From: Candidatus Woesearchaeota archaeon
Lineage (GTDB): Archaea; Nanobdellota; Nanobdellia; Woesearchaeales; JAFGPW01
DNA length: 64,000 bases
Assembly: GCA_016935985.1 (NCBI GenBank)
Contig: JAFGPW010000004.1
Coordinates: 152,752-216,751, forward strand
Direction: 5' to 3'
Below the pieces are notes generated by a model, which did no database searches, was not told the DNA's origin, and worked only from the letters and a program-made list of their open reading frames with translations. This document shows positions 17,609 to 39,025 of this stretch, one piece after another. Positions within the stretch are counted from its first letter, which is position 1. The number at the start of each line of letters is the position of its first letter. The translations under genes and the position numbers were made by a program.

Positions 17609-19012
17609 TCAGGCGCGCTTCCAGCGCACGCCCGTCTTGCCGTCCTCGAGGATGATACCTTTCTCTTTCAGCTCGTCGCGGATCCGGTCGGCGGTCTTCC
17701 AGTCCCGCGCCACCCGCGCCTTCTCGCGCTCCTCTATCAGCGCCTCGACCGCCGCGCCTATAGTCACCTCCTCGAAGTCGAGGATGCCGAGCACGATGTC
17801 GAACCGTTCCATCTGGGCCCTGACCTCCTTGGCGTCAGCCTTCGAGAGCTTCCCGTCCTGGAGGAGCTTGTTCACCCCCTTCATGAACGAGAAGACCGCG
17901 GCGAGCGCCTCGGATATCGAGAGGTCGTCGTCCATCGCGTTGCGGAATCCGGTATCCGCCTCCCTCACGAGCGCGTCCGTCCCCTTCGCGCCTGTCCCGT
18001 GCGCCGCGTCCAGGTTCGTCAGGAAATCGCGGAACTTCTTGACAGTCGACTCCGCCGCCGCAAGGCCGTCCTCGGTGAAGTTGAGCGGCACCTTGTAGTG
18101 CGTCGCGAGCAGCAGGTAGCGTATCGCCTTCGGTGAGTGGCCCATCCTGAGCACGTCGCGGAGCGTGTAGAAGTTCCCGAGCGACTTGCTCATCTTCTTC
18201 CCCTCGACGAGCAGCCACTCGTTGTGCAGCCAGTAGTTGACGAACGCGTGCCCTGAGCAGCCCTCGCTCTGGGCGATCTCGTTCTCGTGGTGGGGGAAGA
18301 CGAGGTCGACGCCGCCGGTGTGGATGTCGAAGTGGTCGCCGAGGTACTCCGTCGACATCGCGCTGCACTCGATATGCCAGCCTGGCCTGCCGGGCCCCCA
18401 TGGCGAGTCCCACTTCACGTCGCCGTCGTCCTTCGTGTACGCCTTCCAGAGCGCGAAGTCATTCGCCGATTCCTTCTCGTACTCGTCCTGCGTCACTCGC
18501 GCCCCCGCCTTCAGCCGGTCGACGTGGATCCGCGAGAGCTTGCCGTAGCCCTTGAACTTGCGGACATTATAGTAGACGCACCCGTCATCGCCGAGGTAGG
18601 CGATGCCCTTGTCCATCAGCCCCTTGATGATCAAGAACATCTGCTCCAGGTGCTCGGTCGCCTTCGGGAAGATGTCAGCCGGGTCGATGTTGAGCGTTTT
18701 AAGGTCCTCGAAGAACGCCTTGATGTACCTCTCGGTATACTGCTTGAGCGGAATCCCCTCTCTCTGGCTTCCCCGGATCGTCTTGTCATCCACGTCGGTG
18801 AGGTTCATCACATGCCGCACCGCATAGCCGAGGTAGGTCAGGTAGCGCTTGAGGACGTCGGCTGCCATGTACGCCCTGAAGTTCCCGACATGGGCGTAGT
18901 CGTAGACCGTCGGGCCGCAGGTGTACATCCTGACTTTCCCTTTCTCGATCTCCCTGAACGGTTCCTTCTTCCGCGAGAGCGTGTTATAGAGCATGAGCGC
19001 CATGTGCTTCAC
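17609..19012 (-). CDS. cysS: Cysteinyl-tRNA synthetase
   Basis: HIGH-like (HVGN) and KMSKS (KMSKSLGN) motifs, Zn-ligand cysteines and 467 aa. Confidence 0.9.
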   Translation of the reverse strand: MKHMALMLYNTLSRKKEPFREIEKGKVRMYTCGPTVYDYAHVGNFRAYMAADVLKRYLTYLGYAVRHVMNLTDVDDKTIRGSQREGIPLKQYTERYIKAFFEDLKTLNIDPADIFPKATEHLEQMFLIIKGLMDKGIAYLGDDGCVYYNVRKFKGYGKLSRIHVDRLKAGARVTQDEYEKESANDFALWKAYTKDDGDVKWDSPWGPGRPGWHIECSAMSTEYLGDHFDIHTGGVDLVFPHHENEIAQSEGCSGHAFVNYWLHNEWLLVEGKKMSKSLGNFYTLRDVLRMGHSPKAIRYLLLATHYKVPLNFTEDGLAAAESTVKKFRDFLTNLDAAHGTGAKGTDALVREADTGFRNAMDDDLSISEALAAVFSFMKGVNKLLQDGKLSKADAKEVRAQMERFDIVLGILDFEEVTIGAAVEALIEEREKARVARDWKTADRIRDELKEKGIILEDGKTGVRWKRA

Positions 19013-19704
19013 CTGCGTGCGGACCTCTTCACCACGAAGAGCGCGTGGTCCTTCTCGAACGGGTCGAGCTCCCGGTGGTCGACCACGGTTATCCTCTGCT
19101 CGAGCTCCTTGAGGACCGTCCGGTACAGCTGCTTCGGCTTCTTGGTGACGTCGATCGAGCGCGCCTTGACGCAGAGGACGGCGAAGCCCTCATCCTTGAG
19201 GAAGAGGTCACAGTTCTTGAGGAAGATCCGCACCTGGTCCTTCTGCGCGACGTCCATGTAGACGAAGTCGGCGAGGCAGACGCGCCGCGCGAGCTCCTTC
19301 GTGTCGTTCGCGTCGCAGAGGATGGGGACGACCGTCGGCCGCTTCTCTGCCATGAAGAGCAGGTCGCGCATGGTCCGGTACGCCATGTCGACCGCGAAGA
19401 CGAGGCCGCGCTTGCCGACGATGTCGGCGACGTGCGAGACAGTCGTCCCTGAGGCGGCGCCGAGGTAGAGGACATAGTCGCCTTCCCTGACCCCGATCTG
19501 GGATATCCCTTTCATGATGGCTGCCGCGAGCTTGCTCCGCGATGGGTCCCAGGAACGATACTCACTCTTGCCGTCCCTGAGGAGCTCTTCTCCGTAGACC
19601 GGCTCGCCAGGGACGAGGCTCTTCGTATAGAGCGCTTTCCGGTTCCCCTTTCTGCCGAGGAAGATGTTCGGGAACTTCTGCCCGAGCGGGCTCAGCTGCG
19701 GCAC
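19009..19704 (-). CDS. flpA: Fibrillarin-like rRNA/tRNA 2'-O-methyltransferase
   Basis: The SAM-MTase motif VLYLGAASGTTVSHVADIV, 231 aa, and a 13-nt overlap with the upstream nop5 gene. Confidence 0.9.
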   Translation of the reverse strand: MPQLSPLGQKFPNIFLGRKGNRKALYTKSLVPGEPVYGEELLRDGKSEYRSWDPSRSKLAAAIMKGISQIGVREGDYVLYLGAASGTTVSHVADIVGKRGLVFAVDMAYRTMRDLLFMAEKRPTVVPILCDANDTKELARRVCLADFVYMDVAQKDQVRIFLKNCDLFLKDEGFAVLCVKARSIDVTKKPKQLYRTVLKELEQRITVVDHRELDPFEKDHALFVVKRSARR

Positions 19705-20597
19705 AGCTTCACCTCCAGCTCCTCGTACAGGCGGTCGGCGACGTACGTGCCCTTGAAGTAGTCGACCCGCGCCGCGATCACGATCTTGTCGGCGAGCATC
19801 CTCGCCGCCCTGCCCTTGTCGCCCCGCTTCGCGCCGGAGACGAGCGGGTGCTGGGATATCAGGCCGTGCTTAGGTGGCGGCGCCTTGGTGCGCATGTGGC
19901 GAAAGAGCGCCTTCTCGGCGCCGAGCATCTGGAGCTTGGAGGCGGTCATGCGGACGATCGCGGCAAACGATCCCGCGTGCGCGAGCAGGCGGGCGCCGAC
20001 GGCGGCGCCGGCGAGGCGCGTGTAGTTCGGATAGAGCCGCTCCATGCCGGTCTTGATATACTCTGCCTGACACCTCTTGACATCAGCGAGCGAGACGATC
20101 ACTTCGGCGAGGGAGCGCACCGCACGGTCGTCGGCCTCCGGGAGGCCTACGCCGAGCGAGGAGCTATCGTCCATGCCGAGTGAGGCGAGAAGCTCGCTGC
20201 GCGAGGACCCTGCGATCCGCTTCGCGAGCGTCTCTGCTGCTGGTATCGCCTCGACGAGCTCGGGAAGCGTGATTGCGTACCATTCGGCGAGGCGCTTCCC
20301 CAGGAGGCCCATCGCCTTGTCGATCTCCTCGAGCAGGTGGGCGGCGTGGATGAGGAGGATGTCGTCATAGTGATGCCCCTTGATTGCTCTCCGGGTCTGC
20401 GCGGTGTTGGTGGTCCGGAACCGGTGAGCCGGCACTTGCGAGCGGAGCGCCGCAAGGAATTCGCGCAGGTGGCCTTCTGGCAAAGGGGGGAGGCCTTCTG
20501 TTCCTCTCACGCCGTCTGCCCCGACGATCGAGCCGTCGCCCGCCACCGCGTACGCGCCCGAGAGGTGGTTGAAACGGTATCTTGGTGCTGTCGCCAT
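19692..20597 (-). CDS. nop5: Nop5/Nop56/58 C/D box snoRNP protein (short form)
   Basis: The NOP domain (KALFRHMRTKAPPPKHGLISQHPLV..GKGRAARMLA..ARVDYF). The start is placed at the Met leaderless to a TATA-like box at ~20622-20633, and the upstream ORF-track extension is rejected. Confidence 0.75.
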   Translation of the reverse strand: MATAPRYRFNHLSGAYAVAGDGSIVGADGVRGTEGLPPLPEGHLREFLAALRSQVPAHRFRTTNTAQTRRAIKGHHYDDILLIHAAHLLEEIDKAMGLLGKRLAEWYAITLPELVEAIPAAETLAKRIAGSSRSELLASLGMDDSSSLGVGLPEADDRAVRSLAEVIVSLADVKRCQAEYIKTGMERLYPNYTRLAGAAVGARLLAHAGSFAAIVRMTASKLQMLGAEKALFRHMRTKAPPPKHGLISQHPLVSGAKRGDKGRAARMLADKIVIAARVDYFKGTYVADRLYEELEVKLCRS

Positions 20598-20639
20598 GGG
20601 CCTTGCGGAAGACCTCCTGCCTATATTATCTTTTCGCAA

Positions 20640-20896
20640 TAGGGGAGGAGCCCCCAACAATAGACCGCTCGTATGCTTCTTGGCAGATATAGAATTAAAG
20701 CAGATATTGACCTTTTTTAGACAAAAGAAAGCAAATTTTATCTTATTTATACTTACATTGTAAGTAGAAAAATCAAGCGAAATGGCTCGACAGCATGATG
20801 AAGTACGCGCAAATGGAAAGATTTATATATTTCATACCACCTTAGTATATCAATTCGTATATTGATTGGGTTTACCAATCAAGTATCCGAGAAAAA
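20640..20896. promoter_or_regulatory. AT-rich (~30% GC) divergent promoter region with three inverted repeats (CTTACAttGTAAG; ATCAATtcgtatATTGAT; TTGATTGGgtttaCCAATCAA)
   Basis: Read directly from the sequence. It separates nop5 (minus strand) from the glycoprotein gene (plus strand), and a TATA-like tttatatat lies at ~20820. Confidence 0.4.
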
Positions 20897-21769
20897 ATGA
20901 GAATTATACTGAAGCGACGGGACATCGCAGCCATGCTGCTCGCTCTCACCGCACTCTTCCTGGTCCCCTCAGCCCCTGACGCCCTCGCCGCGGTCACGAA
21001 CATCACCTTCACGGTCCACCTCACGGTCGGCAACTATCCGCCGACAATCGATTGGATTGTCACTGTCCCCGCCCAGGACCCGACCGAAGCTGCCAACACC
21101 ACGTTCTACGTCTGGTACAACGTCTCCGATCCTGACGGCGCCGGAACCATCAACAACAACACCGCCGAGGTCGTGATCAACCGGTCCGGCGTCTCGCTCA
21201 CCGCGATCAGCTGCTCGAACGCCACGATCAACGGCACCATGCAGACAATCAACTGCACCATGGAGATCGAGTATTACCGGAACGCCGGCGGCTGGGACAT
21301 CAACGTCTCTATCAGGGACATCAGCTCGGCGTTCGCGAACGACACATCCAACTCCTTCACGTACAACATGCTCTCCGCGCTCTGGATGAACACGACTGCG
21401 ATTAGCTTCGGGAGCGTCAACATCGGCCAGACGAACGTCGCGCCGAACTCCTCTCTCGTGCTCAACAATACGGGGAACGTCGACTTCACCGAGGTCAACA
21501 TAACGGCGTACGACCTCGTCGGCTTCACGAACCCCAGCTACTCGATCGCAGCCGACAACTTCACCGTCCGCCTGAACGCATCGACCCTCGGCGGCGATGT
21601 TCTCGACAACGTGACGAACACGACGGTCACCGGCGCGACGGTGCCGCACGGCGCGCCGCCGGCATCGAACGAATCGCTCTGGATCTACATCAACCAGGTC
21701 CCCGGCGGCCTGATCTCGCAGGACTACAACACCACAAACTCTCTCGATTGGTGGGTCCTCGTCGGATAA
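20897..21769 (+). CDS. Secreted protein with a Sec signal peptide and about 20 N-x-S/T sequons in 290 aa (predicted heavily N-glycosylated surface protein)
   Basis: The signal peptide is MRIILKRRDIAAMLLALTALFLVPSAPDALAA. The sequon count was made by eye. Confidence 0.6.
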   Translation: MRIILKRRDIAAMLLALTALFLVPSAPDALAAVTNITFTVHLTVGNYPPTIDWIVTVPAQDPTEAANTTFYVWYNVSDPDGAGTINNNTAEVVINRSGVSLTAISCSNATINGTMQTINCTMEIEYYRNAGGWDINVSIRDISSAFANDTSNSFTYNMLSALWMNTTAISFGSVNIGQTNVAPNSSLVLNNTGNVDFTEVNITAYDLVGFTNPSYSIAADNFTVRLNASTLGGDVLDNVTNTTVTGATVPHGAPPASNESLWIYINQVPGGLISQDYNTTNSLDWWVLVG

Positions 21770-21771
21770 GC

Positions 21772-22365
21772 ATGATGGTCTTTGGATACCAAACCCTGGC
21801 GCTACTCTGCACGCTCATCCTGGCGGCAATCCCGTCCGCTGTGGCTATTGGGGTCGCCGCCGACTACCTCGAGGGCGACGTTCTCGAGCTGCCGCAGGGC
21901 GGCTGGACGACGTATGGTATCAGGCTCCAGAACCCGACGTCGGGGACCTATGAGGTCGAGCTCGACTACGACGATTCCCTCGGGACAGTCATCGGCGGGC
22001 AGAAGCGCTTCATCCTCGAGCCCCAGACATACAGGAACGCGGTCACCTTCAACATCACTGGCCCGCCGGGAGCCCGGCCGGGCGACGAGTTCACCTTCTT
22101 CTACTCTATGGTGCCAATCGTCCAGCCCGATTCGGGGGCGATCTCCATCAAGACCCGGGTCGGCAACCGGTTCACGCTGCGGATCGTGGGGAATCCTGAC
22201 CTCATCCCTCCGGACGGGGAGCAAGCCTCATCCGGCGCAGCGACGGCGAACCCGTGGCTGCTCGTGGGCATCCTCGTCCTCGCGTCGGGAATCGCGTACG
22301 TCCTCGCCGGCAGGACCGTCAGCGACGGCGGACCCCTTCCTAGGCAAAAGCGAAGGATTAAATAG
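21772..22365 (+). CDS. Secreted protein with a C-terminal TM anchor and basic tail; second gene of the glycoprotein pair
   Basis: N-terminal hydrophobic signal MMVFGYQTLALLCTLILAAIPSAVA; C-terminal LLVGILVLASGIAYVLAG then RQKRRIK. The ATG lies 3 nt after the upstream stop codon. Confidence 0.55.
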   Translation: MMVFGYQTLALLCTLILAAIPSAVAIGVAADYLEGDVLELPQGGWTTYGIRLQNPTSGTYEVELDYDDSLGTVIGGQKRFILEPQTYRNAVTFNITGPPGARPGDEFTFFYSMVPIVQPDSGAISIKTRVGNRFTLRIVGNPDLIPPDGEQASSGAATANPWLLVGILVLASGIAYVLAGRTVSDGGPLPRQKRRIK

Positions 22366-22386: not shown

Positions 22387-23109
22387 ATGGCGAGGATCGC
22401 GAGGGAGAGGTGGAAGACCAGGGACGCGGTCTTCGACCAGTTCACGCTGCGCACCCTGTTCAGGCTCTCGGCGACGCTCGGCCTCTCAGAGGACATAAGC
22501 CCGATGAAGATCGGCAAGGAGGCGAATGTCTTCTCGGCGAGGACGGACGACCGGACGGTCGCGATCAAGATCTACCGGCTCGAGACATGCGACTTCAACC
22601 GCATGTACGACTACATCAGGTACGACCCCCGTTACGCGCACCTCAAGAACAACCGCCGCAAGACCATCTTCGCCTGGACGCAGCGCGAGTTCCGCAACCT
22701 GCAGAAGGCGCACGCCGCCGGCGTCACCGTCCCCCAGCCGTATGCGTTCTCGAACAATATCGTGGCGATGCAGTTCATCGGCGGGAGCGAGCCTGCCCCG
22801 CAGCTCAAGGACGCGCGGCCCTTGGACCCTGACAGGTTCTTCGCTGACACAGTCTCGTCGCTCCAGCTGCTCTACCGCGCCGGCCTCGTGCACGGCGATC
22901 TCTCCACATTCAACATCCTCAACGACGATGAGCGGCCGGTGCTGATCGACTTCTCCCAGGCGACACCGACGAACAGCGCGCGCGCCGACGAGCTCCTCGC
23001 AAGGGACGCGAAGAATCTCGCCGGATACTTCGCCAAGCTCGGCATACGGACCGACCCCGCCTCGTTCGCAGACAGGGTGCGGGCATCGGGGCCCATCCAC
23101 AAGATTTAA
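22387..23109 (+). CDS. rio1: RIO-type serine/threonine protein kinase (Rio1)
   Basis: RIO domain motifs: the VAIKIYR lysine, the catalytic loop LVHGDLSTFNIL, and DFSQA. Confidence 0.85.
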   Translation: MARIARERWKTRDAVFDQFTLRTLFRLSATLGLSEDISPMKIGKEANVFSARTDDRTVAIKIYRLETCDFNRMYDYIRYDPRYAHLKNNRRKTIFAWTQREFRNLQKAHAAGVTVPQPYAFSNNIVAMQFIGGSEPAPQLKDARPLDPDRFFADTVSSLQLLYRAGLVHGDLSTFNILNDDERPVLIDFSQATPTNSARADELLARDAKNLAGYFAKLGIRTDPASFADRVRASGPIHKI

Positions 23110-23134: not shown

Positions 23135-23704
23135 ATGACCCGGTTTTCCTATGAGCTCAAGGTCCCGAGAGAACGTATCGCGGTCCTCATCGGCAAGAAC
23201 GGCGAGGTGAAGCGGCAGCTCGAGGAGCTCACCCGTTCGACCATCAGGGTTGACTCCGAGGAAGGGGACGTCTTCGTCGAGGGCGACGATGCGCTCTCGC
23301 TCTACACCACGCGCGAGATAATCCAGGCGGTCTCCCGCGGCTTCAACCCTGAGGTGGCGACGCTCCTCCTCAAGCAGGACTACGCCCTCGAGATACTCTC
23401 CATCGCCGACTTCGCGAAGACCAAGAACCATCTGGTGCGGATCAAGGGACGCATTATAGGGAGCGAGGGGAAGGCCCGGCGGGCCATCGAGGCGCTCACC
23501 GACGCCCACATCTCGGTGTACGGCAAGACCGTCGCGATCATCGGCGAGACCGAGGCGGCACTCTACGCCAAGCGGGCGATCGAGATGCTGCTCTCGGGCA
23601 GCCCGCACACGAACGTCTACAAGATGCTCGAGAAGCGTCGCAAGGAGATGAAGCTGAAATGGATGCTGCCGCGGGACGATGGTAAGGGGGACGAAGAGCC
23701 ATGA
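23135..23704 (+). CDS. KH-domain RNA-binding protein (Dim2/Pno1-like partner of Rio kinase)
   Basis: Two KH-like segments with GKNG/GSEG loops ([17 protein letters not shown]), placed immediately after rio1. Confidence 0.7.
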
Positions 23705-25380
23705 GCGCTGATATGGACAGCATCAAGACGAAGGCGCAGGAGATGGCGACCAAGCAGCGCGAGATATCGGTCGCCGAGTTCTTCGCCAAGAACCGCCACC
23801 TGCTCGGCTTCGACAACAAACGCAAGGCCCTGATGACGACGGTGAAGGAGGCGGTCGACAACTCGCTCGACGCGTGCGAGGAGGCAGGGATACTCCCTGA
23901 GGTCTCTATCGATATCATCGACATGAAGGAGGACCGGTACCGGATCATCGTCGAGGACAACGGGCCGGGCATCGTCAAGCAGCAGATTCCGAAGATCTTC
24001 GCGAAACTCCTCTATGGCAGCAAGTTCCACCGGCTGAAGATGAGCCGCGGCCAGCAGGGGATCGGCATCTCGGCGTCGGTCATGTACGCCCAGATGACGA
24101 CCGGCAGGCCCGCGAAGATCGTCTCCAAGATCCACCCGAACGAGCCGGCACACTACTACGAGCTCCATATCGATACCGAGAAGAACCGGCCCGACATCGT
24201 CAAGGAAGACACGGTCGAGTGGGCGAAGGAGCACGGGACCAAGATTGAGCTCGACCTCGAAGGCACCTACCAGGTTGGGAACCAGTCGGTCGACGAGTAC
24301 CTCAAGGAGACCGCGATCACGAACCCCCATATCACCATCATCTACACCAATCCCAAGGCCCAGCAGCTGATATTCCCGCGCGCGACCGAGACGCTGCCCG
24401 ACGAGCCGAAGGAGATCGCGCCGCACCCGTACGGCGTCGAGCTCGGCATGCTCTTCAAGATGATGCAGCAGACGCAGTACCGGACGCTCCAGGCGTTCCT
24501 GACGAACGAGTTCTCGCGCGTCGGCGCGGGCACCGCGAAGCAGATTTGCGAGAACGCTGCGCTGCTCCCGAACGCCGCCCCCTCCAAGCTCTCGCGCGTG
24601 CAGGCGGAGCAGCTGCTCAAGGGGATCAACGCGACGAAGATCATGGCGCCGCCGACCGATTGCATCAGCCCGATCGGCGCCGACCCCCTTGAGAAGGGCC
24701 TGCGGAAGGAGATCAACGCCGAGTTCTACGCGACGACGACCCGGTCGCCGGCGGTCTATCGCGGCAATCCCTTCATCATCGAGGTGGGCATCGCCTACGG
24801 CGGCGACCAGCCGGGCGACACGCCGGTCAGGCTCATGCGGTTCGCGAACAGGGTGCCGCTCCTCTACCAGCAGGGCGCGTGCGTCATGAACAAGGCGACG
24901 GTCGGCACGGCCTGGCGGTCCTACGGCCTCTCCCAAAGCCAGGGGGCGCTTCCCGTCGGACCGATGACGATCATCATCCACATCGCGAGCGTATGGGTGC
25001 CGTTCACCTCGGAGTCGAAAGAGGCGATCGCGCACTACCCGGAGATCTACAAGGAGATGAGGCTCGCTCTCCAGGAGGTCGGGCGCAAGCTGTCGAGCTA
25101 CGTGAACCGGAAGAGGCGGGTGCGCGACGAGCTCAACAAGCGCTCGTTCATCGAGAAGTACATCCCGCATGTCGCTGAGGCGCTCAAGGAGCTCGTCGGC
25201 GCGAAGGGGTTTGACGGGCGCGCGGTCGAGGAGTCGCTCAAGAAGATCCTCGAGAAAAAGCGCGGCACGGTCGAGCCGCTGGAGTTCGACAAGGAGGCGA
25301 ACGTCGATTTCGACGAGGAGTTCGCGCGGATAGGGAAGGAAGGCGATGAGGAAGGAGAGGGAGGCGATGACGATGAGTGA
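23701..25380 (+). CDS. top6B: DNA topoisomerase VI subunit B
   Basis: GHKL ATPase Bergerat fold ([20 protein letters not shown]), 559 aa, and an acidic C-terminal tail. Confidence 0.9.
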
Positions 25381-26505: not shown

Positions 26506-26618
26506 GGACCTGTAGCCCAGCCTGGATAAGGCGCCGGCCTTCTACGCGAGGATCGGAGCTCTCGGGCTCTCCTTGCAAAGAGAGCCGGAGATCGGGGGTT
26601 CGAATCCCTCCAGGTCCA
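26506..26618 (+). tRNA. tRNA-Arg (UCU) with a ~38-nt intron at the canonical 37/38 position
   Basis: Acceptor GGACCTG/CAGGTCC; anticodon stem CCGGC/GCCGG with loop C-U-UCU-A interrupted by the intron; T-loop TTCGAAT; discriminator A. A TATA box (tttataaa) lies ~30 nt upstream. Confidence 0.7.
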
Positions 26619-26673: not shown

Positions 26674-26799
26674 GCGGGGGTAGCCAAGCGGCTAAGGCGA
26701 TCGGCTGCAGAGCCGGTACCGCGATCGGTACGACGGGTCCTGCGGGACGATGACTGCGCTGATACCGATTATTCGGGGGTTCGAATCCCCCCCCTCGCT
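26674..26799 (+). tRNA. tRNA-Cys (GCA) with a ~53-nt intron at the 37/38 position
   Basis: Acceptor GCGGGGG/CCCTCGC (one G-U pair); anticodon stem ATCGG/CCGAT with loop C-U-GCA-G then the intron; T-loop TTCGAAT; discriminator U, the Cys identity element. An oligo-T tract follows. Confidence 0.65.
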
Positions 26800-26865: not shown

Positions 26866-28083
26866 ATGGACTGGCATCATCACAAGGAACTGGTCATGCT
26901 GCTCTTGTTCCTCATGGCGGCGTTCGTCCTCAGCGCGCTTGTCGTCATCCTCAAGGTGACCCCCGGTTATCTCGGCCATCTGGTCGCGGAAGGCGGCAAC
27001 ATGACGAGCTTGAACATCAGCCAGCGCGAGCAGGCCGCAAGCTGGGAGGGAGTGTATGGGAACATCAGCGTCGGCGGCAGCGCCATGAGCGTCTCGGTCG
27101 GAGGCGGCGCGATCCAGCGGGTCGACATCGTCACCGCTGACAGCGGATACGCGAACGGCTCATTCAATGTCTATGCCTCCAACCAGTCGAGCCTCGACTT
27201 CGCCTGTCTCGAGCCGGCGGCGCCGTCCGACGTGGACCTCCACCTCGGCGTGGGCGCCGGCAGCCTCGGCTCCGGCACCGGCACCTTCACCGCGCAGGCG
27301 CTCTTCATGGTCTATGGCCAGAACGCGAGCCACCTGCTCAACGCGACCCTCACAAACCCGCCATCGAGCGGGTTCTGGGAAGGCATCATGCGCGACAACA
27401 GCACCGGCAACCTCGTGTTCGTCGGGAAAGTGCTGCCCGCAGGCGTCGCCTACAACGGCGAGACCGTCAACTATCAGCTGCTGCTACCGGTGAGCCCCAG
27501 CGGGAACGACACATACCATTTCTTCCTCGACCAATACGGCTGCACCGAGGAGATCGAGATCGAGCTCGCCGACAACCTCATCTCGTTCGTGTGCAACCCT
27601 ACCGACCCGAACATCTCGGTGGTTCTCGCGCCGATCGACGGCGAGTACGAGTCTGCGCACCACTACGACGACGAGGACCCGATCGACCATTGGAAGGTCT
27701 ACAACCCGGCGCTGCCCGGCTGGGTCGTGCAGGACCTCGCGACGCTCAACAGCTCGATGGGATTCTGGCTCAAGATGAACGCCTCTGACAACCTGACCGT
27801 CACCGGCTCCATGACCGGGAATAAGTTCCAGCCTCTCGGACTCGACTACAACATGGTGGGCTATCCGACGACCGTGCCGATGGCGATTAACCTCTCGCTC
27901 GCGAGCATCGAGAACAACTACACATCGATCCACATGTACAACGCATCTGACACTGCGGACCATTGGAAGGTCTACAACCCGGCGCTGCCCGGCTGGGTCG
28001 TGCAGGACCTCACGCGGACGGTGCCGCACCAAGGGTACTGGATACGCATGAACCAGACCGAGGTCTGGGAGATTATGTGGTGA
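26866..28083 (+). CDS. N-terminally membrane-anchored surface protein with two ~50-aa repeats of the form (S.H.YNA.D.ADHWKVYNPALPGWVVQDL...G(F/Y)W(I/L)(R/K)MN)
   Basis: A TATA box (gatttaaata) ~30 nt upstream, a leaderless ATG, an N-terminal hydrophobic segment MLLLFLMAAFVLSALVVIL, and repeats at aa ~265-315 and ~355-405. Confidence 0.6.
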   Translation: MDWHHHKELVMLLLFLMAAFVLSALVVILKVTPGYLGHLVAEGGNMTSLNISQREQAASWEGVYGNISVGGSAMSVSVGGGAIQRVDIVTADSGYANGSFNVYASNQSSLDFACLEPAAPSDVDLHLGVGAGSLGSGTGTFTAQALFMVYGQNASHLLNATLTNPPSSGFWEGIMRDNSTGNLVFVGKVLPAGVAYNGETVNYQLLLPVSPSGNDTYHFFLDQYGCTEEIEIELADNLISFVCNPTDPNISVVLAPIDGEYESAHHYDDEDPIDHWKVYNPALPGWVVQDLATLNSSMGFWLKMNASDNLTVTGSMTGNKFQPLGLDYNMVGYPTTVPMAINLSLASIENNYTSIHMYNASDTADHWKVYNPALPGWVVQDLTRTVPHQGYWIRMNQTEVWEIMW

Positions 28084-28086
28084 GTA

Positions 28087-28898
28087 TGAGAACGGCCCTG
28101 TCACGCATCGGCATCTGCATCCTTCTCATGCTTGCAGCGACCGGGATGACGCAGGCCACTGACACACCAATCCTCTCGGCAGAGCTGTATGGCACCCTAA
28201 CGATCAACGGCGAGGACGCTCCGATCGGCGCTGAGGTCGTGGTCACTGACCCCTCGGGCACGGTCTGCGGCAGGTTCACGGTCGAGACGATCGGCAGGTA
28301 TGGGCTGCTTTCGTGCCATGGCGACATCGGAACGACGCCCGAGGATGAGGGGGCGGTTCCGGGAGAGACGCTGAGCTTCGCCGTCGAGGGAACGGTTGCC
28401 GTCCCGGCAGCGCCGGTCGCGTACGCTGCAGGCGAATTCATCGAGGTCGGCATCGCCGCCGACATCCCTGGCTATTGGGACGTGCCAGCCGTTCCATCGG
28501 ACCGGTCTCCGGAAGAGAAGGAAGACGGCGACAGCGTCGGCAGGGGGGCGCCTTCGGGGAGCGTGCCCTTTCCACGGGAGCGGCAGATCGGCGGCACTGT
28601 TCCAAGCGATGAGAATCGCTCGGATTTTGAGATCCTCCTCGAGAGCGGTGGGGTTGCGACCGAAGAGCCGCGCGCGGTGGAGGGCGAGTCAGGCCTCGAT
28701 TTCTCGATCCTCAAGCTCTTCGGCCAGGACAAGGAAGGCAAGAGCAGGAACCCGTTCAGGGATCCGTTCGCCGGGCTCTGGATCCCGCTCATCCTCAGTT
28801 TCGCAATCCTGGTGATCTATCTGGTCGCACGGATGGTCCGTCTCGAGCGGCGACTCAGGCGGAAAGAGAGGGAATCCGAAGCGCGCACGCTCGAGTAG
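28087..28898 (+). CDS. Secreted, C-terminally membrane-anchored surface protein carrying a shared ~100-aa N-terminal module (paralog of the 30218 and 30736 genes)
   Basis: A Sec signal (cleavage after TQA), the module LYGTLTINGEDAP..GRFTVETIGRYGLLSCHGD..EDEGAVPGE, and a C-terminal TM helix plus R/K-rich tail. Confidence 0.6.
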
Positions 28899-28962
28899 CC
28901 GTCGCATCTCTCCATTGTCGTCTTTTCAGACCGAAAGGTATAAATAGGAGCGAATCCACTTT

Positions 28963-28975
28963 TCTGATTATCAGA
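28963..28975. repeat. 13-bp perfect palindrome TCTGATtATCAGA (operator-like site 1), just downstream of a TATA-like ggtataaatagg at 28938-28949
   Basis: Read directly from the sequence. Confidence 0.6.
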
Positions 28976-29026
28976 TATTAATTTAGAAAGAGTAATAAAA
29001 TTTCGTATAATCATATTTAAAAATAT

Positions 29027-29061
29027 ATTATCAGATATTATCTCTGATTATCAGAATATAT
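29027..29061. promoter_or_regulatory. Operator-like array ATTATCAGATATTAtctcTCTGATtATCAGAATATATT; the second TCTGATtATCAGA palindrome abuts a TATA-like aatatatt upstream of the AbrB-like gene
   Basis: Half-site ATCAGA occurs three times and TCTGAT twice within 28963-29055. The array overlaps the core promoter of the 29108 gene. Confidence 0.5.
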
Positions 29062-29107
29062 TCCTAGGTATGGACCAGGAAAAGAAGCGAAAAAAAGAGG
29101 CGCCCAG

Positions 29108-29398
29108 GTGAAGAGGTATCCCCGTATTGTCCAGAGCGACAGACGCGGCCAGATCGTCATCCCAAAGGACATCAGGGCAGAGCTCGGCATCGAGGAAGGA
29201 TCCGGATTCTGGGTCTACGCGATAGAGGGCGAAGGGATCCTTCTCAGGAAGATCGATGACGAGGAGCTCTCCGAAGACAACCCGGTCGTCAGGAAGCTGA
29301 AGGAGAAATCCGACAAGACATCCCTTTCTTATAAGAAGATCGACGCGACCGTGAAGCGGTACAAGCGGACGAGGAAGGGAAACCTCGAGGTGGTATGA
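29108..29398 (+). CDS. AbrB/MazE/SpoVT-family (swapped-hairpin) DNA-binding transcriptional regulator, 96 aa
   Basis: The N-terminal motif RRGQIVIPKDIRAELGIEEGSGFWVYAIEGEGILLRKI is typical of SpoVT/AbrB domains. The gene has a GTG start and a K/R-rich C-terminal tail. Confidence 0.6.
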   Translation: MKRYPRIVQSDRRGQIVIPKDIRAELGIEEGSGFWVYAIEGEGILLRKIDDEELSEDNPVVRKLKEKSDKTSLSYKKIDATVKRYKRTRKGNLEVV

Positions 29399-30049
29399 GT
29401 GCGGCCTCTCCTGCTCATCACGATCATGCTCCTCATCACCGCCTGCGCCGCCAGCGTCGCTCTCAGCCAGGGCCTTCCGCTCGGCGTATCCCTCTTCATT
29501 ATTGGCGCGAACCAGACCGAATTCGACTTCGATCTCGACTGGAACCTCGCCTCGCTCCAGATCATCCCCAACGACACGAACGTCTCACGCATGCTCACGC
29601 CCATCCTCGGCAAGTACATCTCGGTCCATTACTACAACGCGACCGACATGGCGGACCACTGGAAGGTCTACAACCCGAGCCTGCCAATATGGGTCACCCA
29701 GGACCTCACGAATCTCGATGAGAAGAAGGGATTCTGGATACGGATCAACGAGTCGGTCAACCTGACCGTCAACGGATCGCAGAACTCATACAACGATATC
29801 CCGATACAGCCCGACTGGAACATGGTCGGCTACCCATCCCTCTTCAAGAGGAACGTTACGGTCGCGCTCACATCAATCTGGGGGAATTTCAGCTCAGTCC
29901 ATATGTACAACGCGACCGACATGGCGGACCACTGGAAGGTCTACAACCCGGCGCTGCCCGACTGGGTCGTGCAGGACCTCCTTTGGTTGGTTCCCAAACA
30001 CGGCTACTGGATAAGAGGAAACGACACGGACACATGGAGGGTGGAATAG
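29399..30049 (+). CDS. Secreted protein with two DHWKVYNP(A/S)LPxWVxQDL repeats and multiple N-x-S/T sequons
   Basis: A GTG start gives the signal peptide MRPLLLITIMLLITACAASVALS. Repeats occur at aa ~75-125 and ~160-210. Confidence 0.55.
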   Translation: MRPLLLITIMLLITACAASVALSQGLPLGVSLFIIGANQTEFDFDLDWNLASLQIIPNDTNVSRMLTPILGKYISVHYYNATDMADHWKVYNPSLPIWVTQDLTNLDEKKGFWIRINESVNLTVNGSQNSYNDIPIQPDWNMVGYPSLFKRNVTVALTSIWGNFSSVHMYNATDMADHWKVYNPALPDWVVQDLLWLVPKHGYWIRGNDTDTWRVE

Positions 30050-30217
30050 GTGAGATGATGGGGCGCTCCTGAAACTGCAGGATGAGGGATTCCTCGCGGT
30101 TGCAATCGGCCTCGTCGCTGCAGTGGCGTGCGCTGTGCCCCCAATCCCTAGGGAGATGTACCGGCAAGCCGCCGAGGAAGATGGATATGATGGTGAGAGC
30201 ACATGAGAGATGACCAC

Positions 30218-30739
30218 ATGAGCAAAGCAGTGGCCCTGCTGGCGATCGCGCTCCTCGCGGCTCCTGCAGCGGCCGCGGTGCCGCCGATAGCGATGGAGAT
30301 TTATGGCGGGATCACGATCGACGGCGAGGACGCGATCGAAGGGATCCTCGTAGAGGCGTACGGCGAGGACGGCCGGCTCTGCGGCCGGTTCGTCGTCGAA
30401 GTGCCGGGAAAATACGGCCTGCTCTCCTGCAATGCCGACGATCCCGACACCGAGGAGGACGAGGGAGCGTCGCCGGGCGAGGCGATCGTGTTCAGGATCA
30501 ATCGGCAGGCGGCCGTCGCTGAGCGGCAGGTCCTCTTCGAGGCAGGAGAGTTCGCTGAGGTGAGGCTTGCCGCGTCGCTCCCTGACGGCCAGCAGCCGTT
30601 TATGGAGGTGCCGGCAGACGATGAGGGCGGCGCGCCATGGAAGACCATCTTCGTCGCGATCATCGTCGTCCTCGCCCTCATCGTATGGAACAAGCGGCTC
30701 GAGCTCCGGATAAAGGATCTCACCAGGAAACGCGAATGA
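30218..30739 (+). CDS. Secreted, C-terminally anchored protein carrying the shared N-terminal module (IYGGITIDGEDA..GRFVVEVPGKYGLLSCNAD..EDEGASPGE)
   Basis: Signal peptide MSKAVALLAIALLAAPAAAA; a C-terminal TM helix plus a basic tail; the stop overlaps the next start (ATGA). Confidence 0.6.
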   Translation: MSKAVALLAIALLAAPAAAAVPPIAMEIYGGITIDGEDAIEGILVEAYGEDGRLCGRFVVEVPGKYGLLSCNADDPDTEEDEGASPGEAIVFRINRQAAVAERQVLFEAGEFAEVRLAASLPDGQQPFMEVPADDEGGAPWKTIFVAIIVVLALIVWNKRLELRIKDLTRKRE

Positions 30740-33666
30740 GGAAGAGCAGCTCACAGCGGACCGTGCAGGCGATCTTGGTAGCAGTCGCCCTCATCATGGT
30801 CATGCGTCTCGCCTCGGCGGTGCCGCCGATACCTGCGTCCTTCTCAGGAACGCTCACCATCGACGGCGCGAACGCGCCTCCCGGCACGAACGTATCGGCG
30901 TTCGACCCCGACGGCGTGATGTGCGGCCAGTTCATCTCCACTGTCGTCGGCTTCTACGGCCTGCTCGACTGCGAGGGCGACGACACGGACACCGGCCCTG
31001 ATGAGGGAGCCGAGGACGGCGACACGATAACATTCTACGTCGACGGCGACCTCGCGGACGCCGTCGGGAGCACGACCTGGACCGCAGGAGGGTTCCCGGT
31101 GGCGAACCTGAACGCGCAGAACGACCCGCCGACGATTTCGTCGATATCCGGGCTCTCGGGGACCGTGCCGGCAGGCTCCCTGCAGACCGTCGACTCGGTG
31201 ACGAGCGACCCGAACCCGACCTTCGGGACTAAGGACCAGGTGCGGCTCATCATCTGCACGACGAACTCCGCGTCTGACGGCTCCGGCTGCGACGCCGCGA
31301 CCGTCTGTAGCGGCGCGCTCGCCGCCGACGACCCGAGCTGCTCATTCAACGTCGAAGGCAGCACCGGCTCCTGGACGCGCTACGTCTTCGCCATGGACGA
31401 GCACGACGAGGTCTCGCTCTCATCGCGGCAGCTCACCTATTCGACCGACGGATCGCCGCCCTCGATCACGGGCATCACGCCGACGAACAACTCCTGGCAG
31501 AACGCGACCCCGCTCCCGCTCAACGTCAACACCGACGAGAACGGCTGGTGCAAGTACGACTTCGCCGTGGGGATCGCGTTCGCGGCTAAGGCGAACCTCA
31601 TGACCGGCGGCGGGTCATCGGCCCACGATGGCAACGTCGCGCTCGCGCCGGGGAACAACGATTTCTACATCCAGTGCAACGACACTTTCGGCAACGTCAT
31701 GGCGCTCGCCGACGAGGTCCACCACCGCCTCCGGTACGATGACGCTAACCCCACCTCCGGCGGCGCGACCGTGTGGATCGACGGCGGCGACCCGAACAGC
31801 ACGATCGGGAACGTCTACGTCAACTGGACTGGCTTCACCGACGCGCAGTCGGGCATCATGGGCTACTACTACAACACCGCCAACAACCAAGGAACGATCG
31901 GCGGGACCTACACCGCGAACACCTTCGCGAGCATGGCCCTGCCTGAGGGCGCGGCGCCCGCGGTCTACGTCTGGCCGATTGACATTTCCTATCGCATCGG
32001 AAACGCCGCGTCAGACACCATCATGGTCGACCTTACCCCACCCACCCTCTCCAATTGGGCGGAATCGCCGCCTGACCTCAACTCGAGCTCACCCGAGAAC
32101 TTCACCGTGTCGGTGACCGCGGCAGATGCGGTCTCAGGCCTCAACGGCAGCCCCCAGCTGCGGTACCGCAGGGGGAGCTACGACTCCTCATACACCTCCT
32201 GGCAGACGATGTCAGGCGCCGGCCCCTCTTACAGCCATACCATCCCGCAGCCGACCGGCGGCTGGTTCACGATCATCGACGAGTATGTCTATTACCAGGT
32301 CAGGGTCTGGGACCGCGTCGGTTGGAACCAGACGACCGGCATCCTCTCCGAGCGCGTGAACCGCATGAACTACCCGCCGGTCTTCGACGCGATCGGCAAC
32401 AAGGTCGCCCAGGAGGACGAGCTCATCTGGTTCTATATCCATGCTGCCGACAACGACAACGACACGCTCGCCTTCACGAGCAACCTCTCCGTCCTTTCCA
32501 TCGCCACTGTGAATCGGACCACCGCGAACGTCAGCTGGACGCCCGGCTACGCGTACAACGGCGACAACCATATCTATTTCACCGCGGATGACGGGACCGT
32601 CGCCGTGAACTCCTCGACGGTCAACATCTGGGTGAACGCGACGAACGATGCCCCTGTGCTCGCAACGATCGCTGACCAGACCGTCTACGTGCACGAGGAG
32701 CTGAGCATCCAGGCCATGGCGACCGATGAGGACAACGAGACGATCACCTATCATCAGGATCCCGGCTCGAGGAGCGTCTTCAGAATCGATCCGGCGACAG
32801 GGTGGATCAACTTCACCGCGCTCCTCGGCTATGTCGGACGCCGGAACGTCACCATCTACGCCTCCGACGGGAAGGTCAACGACTCCGAGAACTTCACGCT
32901 CACAATCTACTACTGCGGAGATGACATCTGCAACACGAACGAGAACTGCTCGTCCTGCCCGCAGGACTGCGGCAGCTGCAGCTCCCAGCGCCCTGACCGG
33001 CTCGCCATTGTCATCCAGCCGCGCAACTGCCTGAACCAGACCATGCTCATCAAGGTGTATGACATGACGGTGCGTGCGAACTGCACGACGATGGGGCTGA
33101 TCTATGAGGGCTATGAGGTGTGCGGCAACCTGAGCGATGTCGGGCTCACCATCTCCATCAAGGACGAGGGAACCGGCACCTACAACGAGAGCGCGGAGCT
33201 CTCCACCGACGATCTCGGCGAGGCGACATTCACGCCGATGATCCCCGGCCACTATCGGATCGTCGCGAAGAAGTCGGACTATCCCGACACCCTGATGCAC
33301 TTCGAGGCCGACTACTGCTACGCCAACGAGACGCTCAACGAGACGACGGCGCCGGCGGCCGTGAACCAGACCGGCGAGCCCACGACGGAGCCCGCCACGA
33401 AGCCGCCGGAGACCGAGGGGCCGGAGGAGGTTCTCCCCAAAGAGGAGACGAGCCTCTTCCTCTTCATCCTGTACTATGTCATCATCCCGATACTCCTCCT
33501 CTCGCTCTTCACCGCGAGCGCCTGGTACTACCAGAAGGAGAAGGACAACAGCATCGCGATCCTGAAGGCTCGGATATCGGTGAAGCGCCAGTACCTCGTG
33601 CTCGCGAAGTACGCCGAGTACTACTGGCACCTGCTCCTCGAGAGGATCGGGCTCGGCAAGAAATGA
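30736..33666 (+). CDS. Large (976 aa) secreted surface protein: shared N-terminal module, a long beta-rich N-glycosylation-rich region, a Cys-rich segment (YYCGDDICNTNENCSSCPQDCGSCSS), a Thr/Pro-rich stalk, and a C-terminal TM anchor
   Basis: Signal peptide cleavage after ASA; the shared module FSGTLTIDGANAP..GQFISTVVGFYGLLDCEGD..PDEGAEDGD; C-terminal LFLFILYYVIIPILLLSLFTASAWYY. Confidence 0.65.
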   Translation: MRKSSSQRTVQAILVAVALIMVMRLASAVPPIPASFSGTLTIDGANAPPGTNVSAFDPDGVMCGQFISTVVGFYGLLDCEGDDTDTGPDEGAEDGDTITFYVDGDLADAVGSTTWTAGGFPVANLNAQNDPPTISSISGLSGTVPAGSLQTVDSVTSDPNPTFGTKDQVRLIICTTNSASDGSGCDAATVCSGALAADDPSCSFNVEGSTGSWTRYVFAMDEHDEVSLSSRQLTYSTDGSPPSITGITPTNNSWQNATPLPLNVNTDENGWCKYDFAVGIAFAAKANLMTGGGSSAHDGNVALAPGNNDFYIQCNDTFGNVMALADEVHHRLRYDDANPTSGGATVWIDGGDPNSTIGNVYVNWTGFTDAQSGIMGYYYNTANNQGTIGGTYTANTFASMALPEGAAPAVYVWPIDISYRIGNAASDTIMVDLTPPTLSNWAESPPDLNSSSPENFTVSVTAADAVSGLNGSPQLRYRRGSYDSSYTSWQTMSGAGPSYSHTIPQPTGGWFTIIDEYVYYQVRVWDRVGWNQTTGILSERVNRMNYPPVFDAIGNKVAQEDELIWFYIHAADNDNDTLAFTSNLSVLSIATVNRTTANVSWTPGYAYNGDNHIYFTADDGTVAVNSSTVNIWVNATNDAPVLATIADQTVYVHEELSIQAMATDEDNETITYHQDPGSRSVFRIDPATGWINFTALLGYVGRRNVTIYASDGKVNDSENFTLTIYYCGDDICNTNENCSSCPQDCGSCSSQRPDRLAIVIQPRNCLNQTMLIKVYDMTVRANCTTMGLIYEGYEVCGNLSDVGLTISIKDEGTGTYNESAELSTDDLGEATFTPMIPGHYRIVAKKSDYPDTLMHFEADYCYANETLNETTAPAAVNQTGEPTTEPATKPPETEGPEEVLPKEETSLFLFILYYVIIPILLLSLFTASAWYYQKEKDNSIAILKARISVKRQYLVLAKYAEYYWHLLLERIGLGKK

Positions 33667-38863: not shown

Positions 38864-39025
38864 ACCAGGCGCTGCCCTCACATCCCCATCCCTATTTTTT
38901 TATAGGGTATAGGGCATGAGCTCCGTTAACGGGGCCTGTCCATGCGGATATTAATCCTTGAGTAGTATCATTTATATACAACCTCGATTCTGCCTACTGA
39001 TTACGGAGACGCGTCGTTGAGATGC

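Follow-up and report, generated by a model that had tools for sequence, protein, structure and literature searches.

Two adjacent genes, here called g1 and g2, were analyzed in a 64-kb stretch of archaeal DNA from a Candidatus Woesearchaeota archaeon (assembly GCA_016935985.1, contig JAFGPW010000004.1, positions 152,752 to 216,751). This whole stretch is referred to below as the window, and positions are counted from its first letter. The product of g1 is a predicted secreted protein with an extreme density of N-glycosylation sequons, and that of g2 is a predicted membrane-anchored partner. Comparison with relatives indicated that g1-g2 is a real, conserved, and unannotated surface module of DPANN archaea, the claims made here about its function being computational. 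The features of the locus, all on the plus strand, are the following.

20824-20831 (+): candidate archaeal TATA box, TTTATATA, a consensus match found by reading the sequence; putative in function
20862-20882 (+): perfect 8-nucleotide (nt) inverted repeat (I5), TTGATTGG-5 nt-CCAATCAA, located 3' of the TATA box and 5' of the g1 start
20897-21769 (+): g1, called as an open reading frame (ORF) with an ATG start, 290 amino acids (aa)
20897-20989 (+): g1 signal peptide (by eye), residues 1 to 31, with a KRR n-region, a hydrophobic core, and an A-L-A cleavage motif
21002-21034 (+): g1 N-terminal amphipathic strand and linker, residues 36 to 46 (ITFTVHLTVGN), then PPTI, shortly after the predicted cleavage site
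21044-21364 (+): g1 domain 1, residues 50 to 156, a predicted beta-sandwich (predicted local distance difference test score [pLDDT], 93 to 98) with invariant C106 and C120 and a D-x-D-G motif
21380-21763 (+): g1 domain 2, residues 162 to 289, a predicted beta-sandwich with invariant N-x-G-N and N-x-T (N201)
21748 (TTG) or 21772 (ATG) to 22365 (+): g2, 205 aa or 197 aa
21850-22191 (+): g2 ectodomain, a predicted 7- to 8-stranded beta-sandwich, PapD/MSP-like, with one conserved sequon (FNIT)
22252-22362 (+): g2 membrane helix (residues 161 to 182) and cytoplasmic basic tail ending in PRQKRRIK, from the model

Sequence features of g1 and g2

The g1 protein contains exactly 20 N-x-S/T sequons (x being any residue but proline), all of them within the mature part, which amounts to one per 12.9 residues over the 258-aa mature chain. 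Shuffling this chain 5000 times yielded 6.8 ± 2.2 sequons and at most 15; since none of the 5000 shuffles reached 20, the excess goes beyond what composition would produce. Among the ORFs of at least 150 aa in the window, g1 was the densest in sequons, with 6.5 per 100 aa, compared with 1.5 or fewer for ordinary genes. The mature chain is acidic and contains 33 Asn residues, despite a window G+C content of ~62%, no Lys, and only four Arg. Halophily was considered as the cause of this acidic, Lys-poor composition and rejected, because Lys and Arg are abundant in housekeeping proteins encoded in the window and the avoidance of both residues seen in g1 is family-wide, AT-rich genomes included.

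The N terminus, MRIILKRRDI-AAMLLALTALFLV-PSAPDALA/AV, where the slash marks the predicted cleavage between A31 and A32, looks like a Sec signal peptide when read by eye. Residues 7 to 21 of this segment were helical in the structural model described below, and the N-terminal motif is kept in relatives. Reading of the mature chain, which ends in DWWVLVG, revealed no membrane segment and no PGF motif, and the mass of the protein is 28 kDa. In its excess of sequons on a predicted exported domain, g1 resembles an N-glycoprotein, that is, a putative AglB substrate.

The g2 product comprises a signal peptide, one beta-sandwich, a predicted C-terminal helix (numbered here in the 197-aa form), and the tail GRTVSDGGPLPRQKRRIK; it has a single sequon. 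Translation from the TTG codon at 21748 would give a 22-nt overlap with g1, and translation from the ATG codon at 21772 would begin 2 nt past the g1 stop. The TTG start supplies a PRR n-region, resembling that of homologues that open with MK or MR. Translation of g2 is predicted from this arrangement to be coupled to that of g1. A membrane helix followed by a Lys/Arg-rich tail ends every g2 homologue listed.

These results bear out the first-pass annotation of the locus, which had been made from the sequence alone and had described a 290-aa protein with about 20 sequons, roughly one per 13 residues, a Sec signal peptide, short beta-like segments, and no transmembrane anchor. The partner that it had proposed, membrane anchored, with a signal peptide, a C-terminal transmembrane helix, and an RQKRRIK tail, was likewise recovered in the sequence and model of g2, and the anchor was found again in its homologues. 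The interpretation offered there, a glycan-shielded component of a surface layer or sheath with a membrane-anchored partner, is partly supported by what follows.

Family size, gene order, and domain architectures

Scans of Pfam (2025) and NCBIfam (2026) at an E value of ≤1 gave no match for g1 or g2, except for a spurious one to Bactofilin (0.067). No S-layer family matched g1 or g2 in the two libraries, or 20 g1 and 5 g2 homologues in Pfam, the characterized families considered being SlaA/SlaB, S_layer_MJ, DUF1608 (Methanosarcina), and halobacterial csg with PGF-CTERM; no Big or Cadherin model of Pfam matched g1. Pfam scans of these homologues and of 14 homologues of g3, a third gene introduced below, also returned nothing above the cutoff. 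A word-indexed homology search yielded one relative of g1 (P0002, 38% identity) and none from g2 alone; the gene for P0002 is followed by a relative of g2 (32% identity; E, 1e-20). The family became accessible only through an exhaustive profile search with two g1 sequences, in which 1172 cluster representatives (clusters at 50% identity) were matched at an E value of ≤1e-3, 879 at ≤1e-10, and 171 at ≤1e-30, while further relatives of g2 came via a g2 profile. The first-pass statement that neither sequence was recognizable thus held as far as known families are concerned, but g1 is no orphan, its family numbering at least 1172 clusters. Homology to a characterized S-layer or sheath protein, which by the first-pass annotation's own account would have refuted its reading, was looked for in Pfam, NCBIfam, and PDB sequences and was not found. 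The ten family clusters that were checked (eight of g1 and two of g2) were labeled "hypothetical protein" or carried no name in the sources, and the literature searched contained no description of the g1-g2 family.

A scan of GTDB contigs (one genome per species) with a two-sequence g1 alignment revealed nine relatives, the window not among them, all nine from Candidatus Woesearchaeota, a DPANN lineage; one Woesearchaeota genome with 62% G+C encodes a g1 that is 40% identical to that of the window. Given that every named relative belongs to the Woesearchaeota, the assembly would be specific to DPANN archaea.

Hidden Markov models (HMMs) for g1, g2, and g3 were mapped onto 50 loci (designated by L numbers, and proteins by P numbers) with 44 distinct g2 genes. 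An ORF with a g1 domain lay directly upstream of g2 in 35 of the 41 cases with room to see it (33 counted by script, plus the window and L011, both with overlapping ORFs), in agreement with the pairing of the two genes in a secreted module that had been proposed at first. The order is conserved in dozens of metagenomic and genomic loci whose G+C content ranges from 31 to 62% and whose homologues are 30 to 40% identical. The high G+C content of the window gives rise to many long shadow ORFs, and g1 and g2 might on that account be chance neighbors or not real, expressed genes. However, both have homologues in the same order across that range of composition, and the g1 model is of high confidence; synteny and conservation effectively refute this explanation, which we regard as extremely improbable.

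In 30 of 37 cases g2 is directly followed by g3, which encodes an unannotated type I membrane protein of 600 to 720 aa (for example, L008:7500-9350, L001:2386-4542, L005:853-2700, and L006:3289-5079, with ~25 more loci). Its layout comprises a signal peptide, a variable N-terminal part that is sometimes Asp-rich and calcium-binding-like, a poly-Gly linker, two immunoglobulin (Ig)-like domains, a membrane helix, and a cytoplasmic coiled-coil tail that closes with a SHOCT-like motif. The first Ig domain gave sub-threshold matches to HYDIN and Cep192; matches of g3 among PDB sequences were discounted as artefacts of the poly-Gly linker, and a comparison of g2 with g3 was not significant (hhalign probability, 4.9%). 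No g3 was found in the window by tblastn and HMM searches over all its ORFs, the best value (E, 0.002; 11 bits) being noise. The same two-gene form was observed in L053 (34% G+C) and L051 (55% G+C), which hold two of the closest g1 relatives of the window (39% identity). Because the window, L051, and L053 are free of g3, g1-g2 can be regarded as the core and g3 as a frequent addition. The two genes would then be sufficient without g3, although a g3 could be located elsewhere in the source genome.

Three variations on the cluster were observed. At L006:1304-2112, a toxin-antitoxin-like pair (DUF3368/UPF0175) and a 114-aa ORF are located between the g1-domain gene and g2, and a PemK/MazE-type pair is found near the clusters of L005 and L053. 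At L045:1811-4750, the g2 domain is N-terminal in a 980-aa ORF rather than forming a ~180-aa protein, which reflects a fusion or else an artefact of assembly or reading frame.

The excess of sequons proved to be a trait of the family. Across the 150 best g1 matches, the domain has a median of 16 sequons per ~280 residues, versus 6.4 after shuffling (mean z score, 4.2; median, 4.3), with 11% Asn and 3% Lys plus Arg, though most of the relatives' genomes are AT-rich. Eight alignment columns hold a sequon in at least half of these domains, including those of N136 (90%), N238 (79%), N190 (68%), N221 (67%), and N201 (63%) in the numbering of the window protein, and the other sites are lineage-specific. 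Such keeping of sequon columns is the pattern expected from selection and implies a working N-glycosylation system, and g1 itself may be glycosylated. The extreme density noted in the first-pass annotation is therefore family-wide and partly conserved in position.

Ninety of the 150 matches are standalone proteins (~280 to 340 aa, with a signal peptide), and 45 are larger proteins with the domain at the extreme C terminus; the domain thus closes the chain in all the standalone and in 45 of the 60 fused proteins. The larger proteins contain beta-helix/NosD, laminin-G/ConA-like, RCC1, or Big domains, in architectures like those of adhesins. Giant members, of at least 1957 aa, at least 2249 aa, and up to 2787 aa, adjoin g1-g2-g3 clusters: the giant gene lies upstream on the same strand in L008, inside the cluster in L011, and, in L012, divergent from the cluster of L010 on the same contig.

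The remaining 15 of the 150 matches carry an extra tail of 70 to 340 aa beyond the domain, in which a membrane helix continues the last strand of the g1 domain and is followed by a Lys/Arg-rich stretch and one or two cytoplasmic helix-turn-helix (HTH) units. These units are similar to region 4 of sigma-70 and contain the motif RDERTIWTxY. Membrane proteins of this kind are P0113, P0110, P0033, P0084, P0088, and P0106, together with those encoded at L011:2159-7075 and L049:1277-2908. In some, the g1 domain is preceded by an adhesin-like giant ectodomain exceeding 1000 aa, and the 1639-aa giant protein of L011 ends in the same membrane helix-HTH tail. Since the last strand runs into a membrane helix in 15 proteins, the g1 domain must have its C-terminal end at the membrane there and can work in a tethered state. 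The g1-domain-HTH proteins look like contact- or assembly-sensing membrane-bound transcription factors, and their existence suggests homotypic sensing of g1-type domains.

These 15 proteins could also be taken to mean that g1 belongs to a signaling module, as a secreted ligand or decoy that binds homotypically to g1-domain-membrane helix-HTH regulators, or to g2, and reports contact or cell density instead of forming a structure. An HTH gene, fused or separate, lies just 5' of a standalone g1 in several loci (fused in L049, where the g1-domain-HTH gene precedes g1; separate in L001 and L051/L052; and also in L011), and the leader of g1 in the window contains a perfect palindrome. However, no g1-domain-HTH protein is encoded in the window, the 20 sequons and the family-wide avoidance of Lys and Arg point to a bulk structural surface protein, and the association with regulators is equally well explained by feedback control of a structural operon. 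A signaling role is for these reasons considered very unlikely.

Predicted structures and comparison with known assemblies

An AlphaFold2 model of g1, built from a 20-sequence alignment, had a mean pLDDT of 87 and a predicted template modeling (TM) score of 0.71. It was all-beta, with two Ig-like beta-sandwich domains, which answers in favor of Ig-like domains the choice between these and a beta-helix that the first-pass annotation had left to structure prediction. The chain stops directly after the last strand (W285). Positions invariant in relatives are C106, C120, W133, N136, D141, N191-x-G193-N194, N201-x-T203, and W285, and C106 and C120 are likely to form a disulfide. Foldseek searches of the PDB returned only generic tandem Ig/FnIII matches (RbmA, Fab light chains, and streptococcal pilins), with E values of 1e-5 to 1e-3 and TM scores of ≤0.3.

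The model of g2 was of moderate confidence (pLDDT, 67; 5 sequences) and consisted of a signal helix, a sandwich of residues ~37 to 139, and the C-terminal helix. A flexible loop of low confidence (residues 123 to 129) precedes the last strand, whose hydrophobic residues alternate. Foldseek matched this model to the N-terminal domains of the chaperones FaeE, FimC, Caf1M, and CsuC, to VAP MSP domains, and to a PapD-like domain of HYDIN (E, 5e-5 to 5e-4); for the chaperone domains the probability was 1.00, with E values of 6e-5 to 5e-4 and query TM scores of 0.32 to 0.39. Target-normalized TM scores reached 0.61, and MSP and ASH domains matched as well as the PapD chaperones. No Pfam match to PapD_N or PapD_C (PF00345, PF02753) was obtained for g2 and four homologues at an E value of ≤0.5, and a profile search of PDB sequences with g2 gave only insignificant matches. 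The possibility that g2 is a paralogue of g1 was rejected (hhalign probability, 2.6%).

The resemblance of g2 to PapD-family chaperones raises the question of whether the locus encodes a donor-strand fiber, as an archaeal analogue of chaperone-usher or thread pili in which the N-terminal strand of g1 inserts into the next subunit. The giant g1-domain proteins would then be tip adhesins, g2 a tethered PapD-like chaperone or basal anchor, and g3, in loci that have it, the assembly platform. The strand in question is well conserved: among the 90 standalone members, 87 to 98% carry hydrophobic residues at positions 40, 42, and 44, alternating with polar ones, and after the strand N46 is strongly conserved and P49 near-invariant. 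It lies near the predicted cleavage site, the monomer model does not place it, and mature g3 opens with a similar strand motif (hhalign probability, 46%). The flexible loop before the alternating last strand of g2 also fits a fiber. In addition, the order of subunit(s), PapD-like protein, and large membrane protein mirrors that of fimbrial operons, as do tandem g1 paralogues and an adhesin with the subunit domain. On the other hand, both g1 domains are predicted with high confidence to be complete without the N-terminal strand, which, with its N..P.I motif, is also found ahead of the g1 domain inside the fused giant proteins and there resembles a usual boundary between domains. A fiber of this kind is therefore judged unlikely, although it is the leading alternative to the coat proposed below.

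Compared with chaperone-usher systems themselves (FimA/FimH, FimC, and FimD; Caf1/Caf1M), the likeness extends from the fold of g2 and the gene order to the amphipathic strand of g1 and to the large adhesins, which carry the subunit domain C-terminally, as FimH does. In contrast, g2 is a single-domain, membrane-anchored protein and not a soluble two-domain, boomerang-shaped chaperone; there is no outer membrane; no gene similar to a beta-barrel usher (PF00577) and no Pfam PapD or Usher match was found; and g3 is missing from the window, L051, and L053. We consider it unlikely that g1-g2(-g3) is an outer-membrane-free archaeal counterpart of the chaperone-usher pathway, with giant lectin or beta-helix proteins as the tips by which DPANN cells grasp their hosts and with the HTH proteins as sensors of assembly or contact that act back on transcription.

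Donor-strand filaments with dense N-glycosylation do exist in archaea. The threads of Sulfolobus (Saci_0406), the bundling pili of Pyrobaculum (TasA-like), and the cannulae of Pyrodictium are built from Sec-exported beta-sandwich subunits with an N-terminal donor strand; the threads are densely N-glycosylated, and the assembly factors of archaeal donor-strand filaments are unknown (PMC9715654, PMC12518558). None of the thread, TasA/bundling-pilus, and cannula subunits showed a sequence match to g1 or was among its top fold matches. g1 also differs from them in having two domains, and neither a membrane-anchored partner nor giant adhesin fusions have been described for those filaments.

Other comparisons were less informative. 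With the PapD-like/MSP/ASH superfamily (VAP MSP, HYDIN, and Cep192), the module shares the fold of the g2 ectodomain and an L-x-N-x-G-N strand motif in domain 2 of g1, but there was no match at the Pfam threshold, and the generic fold carries little functional information. The tandem beta-sandwiches of g1 resemble RbmA of Vibrio cholerae and cadherin repeats, the latter also in the N..P.I linker and the D-x-D-G motif of domain 1; the structural scores were nevertheless low, as given above, and the best match of a g1 profile among PDB sequences, to Cadherin-23 (domain 1), was not significant (E, 0.4).

The closest functional parallel is to two-component envelopes of the SlaA/SlaB type. In the Sulfolobales, SlaA is a secreted, heavily N-glycosylated beta-sandwich protein without an anchor, and SlaB is a smaller partner with a single C-terminal helix. 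As in that system, the genes for g1 and g2 are adjacent, and an outer glycoprotein tethered in trans is proposed. The differences are that no sequence or family match was found, that g1 is ~5 times smaller than SlaA, and that g2 lacks a coiled-coil stalk and has a single PapD/MSP-like domain instead; moreover, g3, giant adhesin fusions, and HTH-fused variants occur among the relatives of g1-g2 and none is known for Sla. The module has features of chaperone-usher systems and archaeal threads as well but is a member of none of these groups.

A true two-component S-layer, in which g1 would form a paracrystalline lattice, g2 the membrane stalk, a part that its helix and basic tail would allow, and giant proteins occasional inserts, is a special case of the coat proposed in the next section. 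The pairing, as in slaA-slaB, of a secreted, presumably heavily glycosylated Ig-domain protein with a C-terminally anchored partner, the strong consensus TATA box, the acidity of mature g1, and the fact that no other S-layer candidate was recognized in the window all agree with it. However, g1, at 28 kDa, is small for a known S-layer protein, some genomes have several paralogous clusters, and no homology to any S-layer family was found; we consider a true S-layer quite unlikely.

Genomic context and proposed role of the module

The 236-nt, AT-rich spacer 5' of g1 contains the candidate TATA box, which has a purine-rich stretch (GAAAGA) in front, lies within a palindrome (I1), and is followed by the ATG of g1 66 nt downstream. 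The inverted repeat at 20862-20882 could, speculatively, be an operator or a hairpin of the 5' untranslated region or leader. On one side the module is flanked by a divergent minus-strand operon whose genes, from their translations read by eye, we take to encode Nop5 (19692-20660), fibrillarin (19009-19704), and cysteinyl-tRNA synthetase (17609-19012). On the other side follows a codirectional housekeeping row that presumably encodes, again by eye, a Rio-type kinase (22387-23109), a KH protein (23135-23704), and topoisomerase VI subunit B (23701-25380). The gap between g2 and the Rio kinase gene is 21 nt, with no terminator-like site within it.

A second sequon-rich group of exported proteins is encoded at 26866-33666 (+), with ORFs at 26866-28083, ~28086-28898, 29399-30049, and 30637-33666. 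Its 405-aa and 216-aa proteins contain 18 and 11 sequons, share the repeat HMYNA(S/T)D.ADHWKVYNPALP.WV.QDL...GYWIR.N, and are homologous to the gene located right after g1-g2 in L051 (E, 1.5e-13 and 2.6e-11). In the 1009-aa protein of the group, a Big_9 domain is combined with a C-terminal membrane helix; its N-terminal domain, of the form TLTI.G..AP.G..V...DP.G..CG.F, is shared with the ~270-aa membrane protein at 28086-28898. This group may be in the same surface regulon as g1-g2. Elsewhere in the window, two tRNA matches at 26506-26618 and 26674-26799 (+), of 113 and 126 nt against the 71 positions of the Rfam tRNA model and unreported by ARAGORN, are probably intron-containing archaeal tRNA genes. 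Long ORFs without a Pfam family at an E value of ≤1e-5 are present at 6374-8614 (+; 746 aa, polytopic membrane protein) and 39017-40990 (+; 657 aa).

The reading that we favor is that g1 is a hyperglycosylated building block of the cell surface and that g2 keeps it on the cell; we judge this proposal about as likely as not. g1 and g2 would be transcribed from one archaeal promoter, translated in a coupled manner, and exported through the Sec pathway. g1 would shed its signal peptide, receive N-glycans on as many as 20 sequons, presumably through AglB, and fold as two Ig-like beta-sandwich domains, one of them with a disulfide. The C-terminal helix of g2 would keep this protein in the membrane, its basic tail facing the cytoplasm and its PapD/MSP-like Ig domain exposed near the membrane. 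In this position g2 would serve as an anchor in trans for the g1 domain, which is anchored in cis in the HTH variants, and the C-terminal end of g1 would be membrane-proximal. The standalone g1 would in this way build a dense, acidic, almost Lys/Arg-free, glycan-rich, and protease-resistant coat, and the giant adhesin-like proteins of relatives, with their C-terminal g1 domain, would be mounted on the same base.

Several observations weigh against this proposal. Residues 28 to 48 of g1 form an unplaced coil in the monomer model (pLDDT, ~52) and are conserved all the same; a plain anchor does not explain this strand, and a strand-exchange polymer fits it better. Some small genomes, such as that of Woesearchaeota NC_groundwater_435, contain several g1 clusters, a situation more usual for adhesin or pilus genes than for a single, dominant coat protein. 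No g1-g2 fusion is present among the 150 top matches, where the long tails consist of a membrane helix and HTH units; the AglB motif WWDxG has no match in the 64-kb window; and the fold predicted for g2, at the moderate confidence stated above, is a generic one.

DPANN archaea such as the Woesearchaeota are mostly uncultured, have tiny genomes, and are thought to live attached to other cells. To our knowledge, the composition of their envelopes and the way in which giant surface proteins are held on the cell are largely unknown. The present analysis defines a widespread gene set, with at least 1172 clusters of g1, normally accompanied by g2 and usually by g3; neither Pfam nor NCBIfam has a model for this set, and the sources that were checked give it no informative name. 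Its g1 domain links a small hyperglycosylated protein to the module at the C terminus of giant adhesin-like proteins and to single-pass membrane HTH regulators, among which no connection was known earlier. If the glycosylation is real, few prokaryotic proteins would match g1 in density of N-glycans, at one sequon per 13 residues. The g1 domain can serve as a marker in metagenomic searches for the attachment apparatus, and g1-g2 is probably the base unit of the outer surface of these Woesearchaeota-type DPANN cells, to which their giant adhesins are also fixed.

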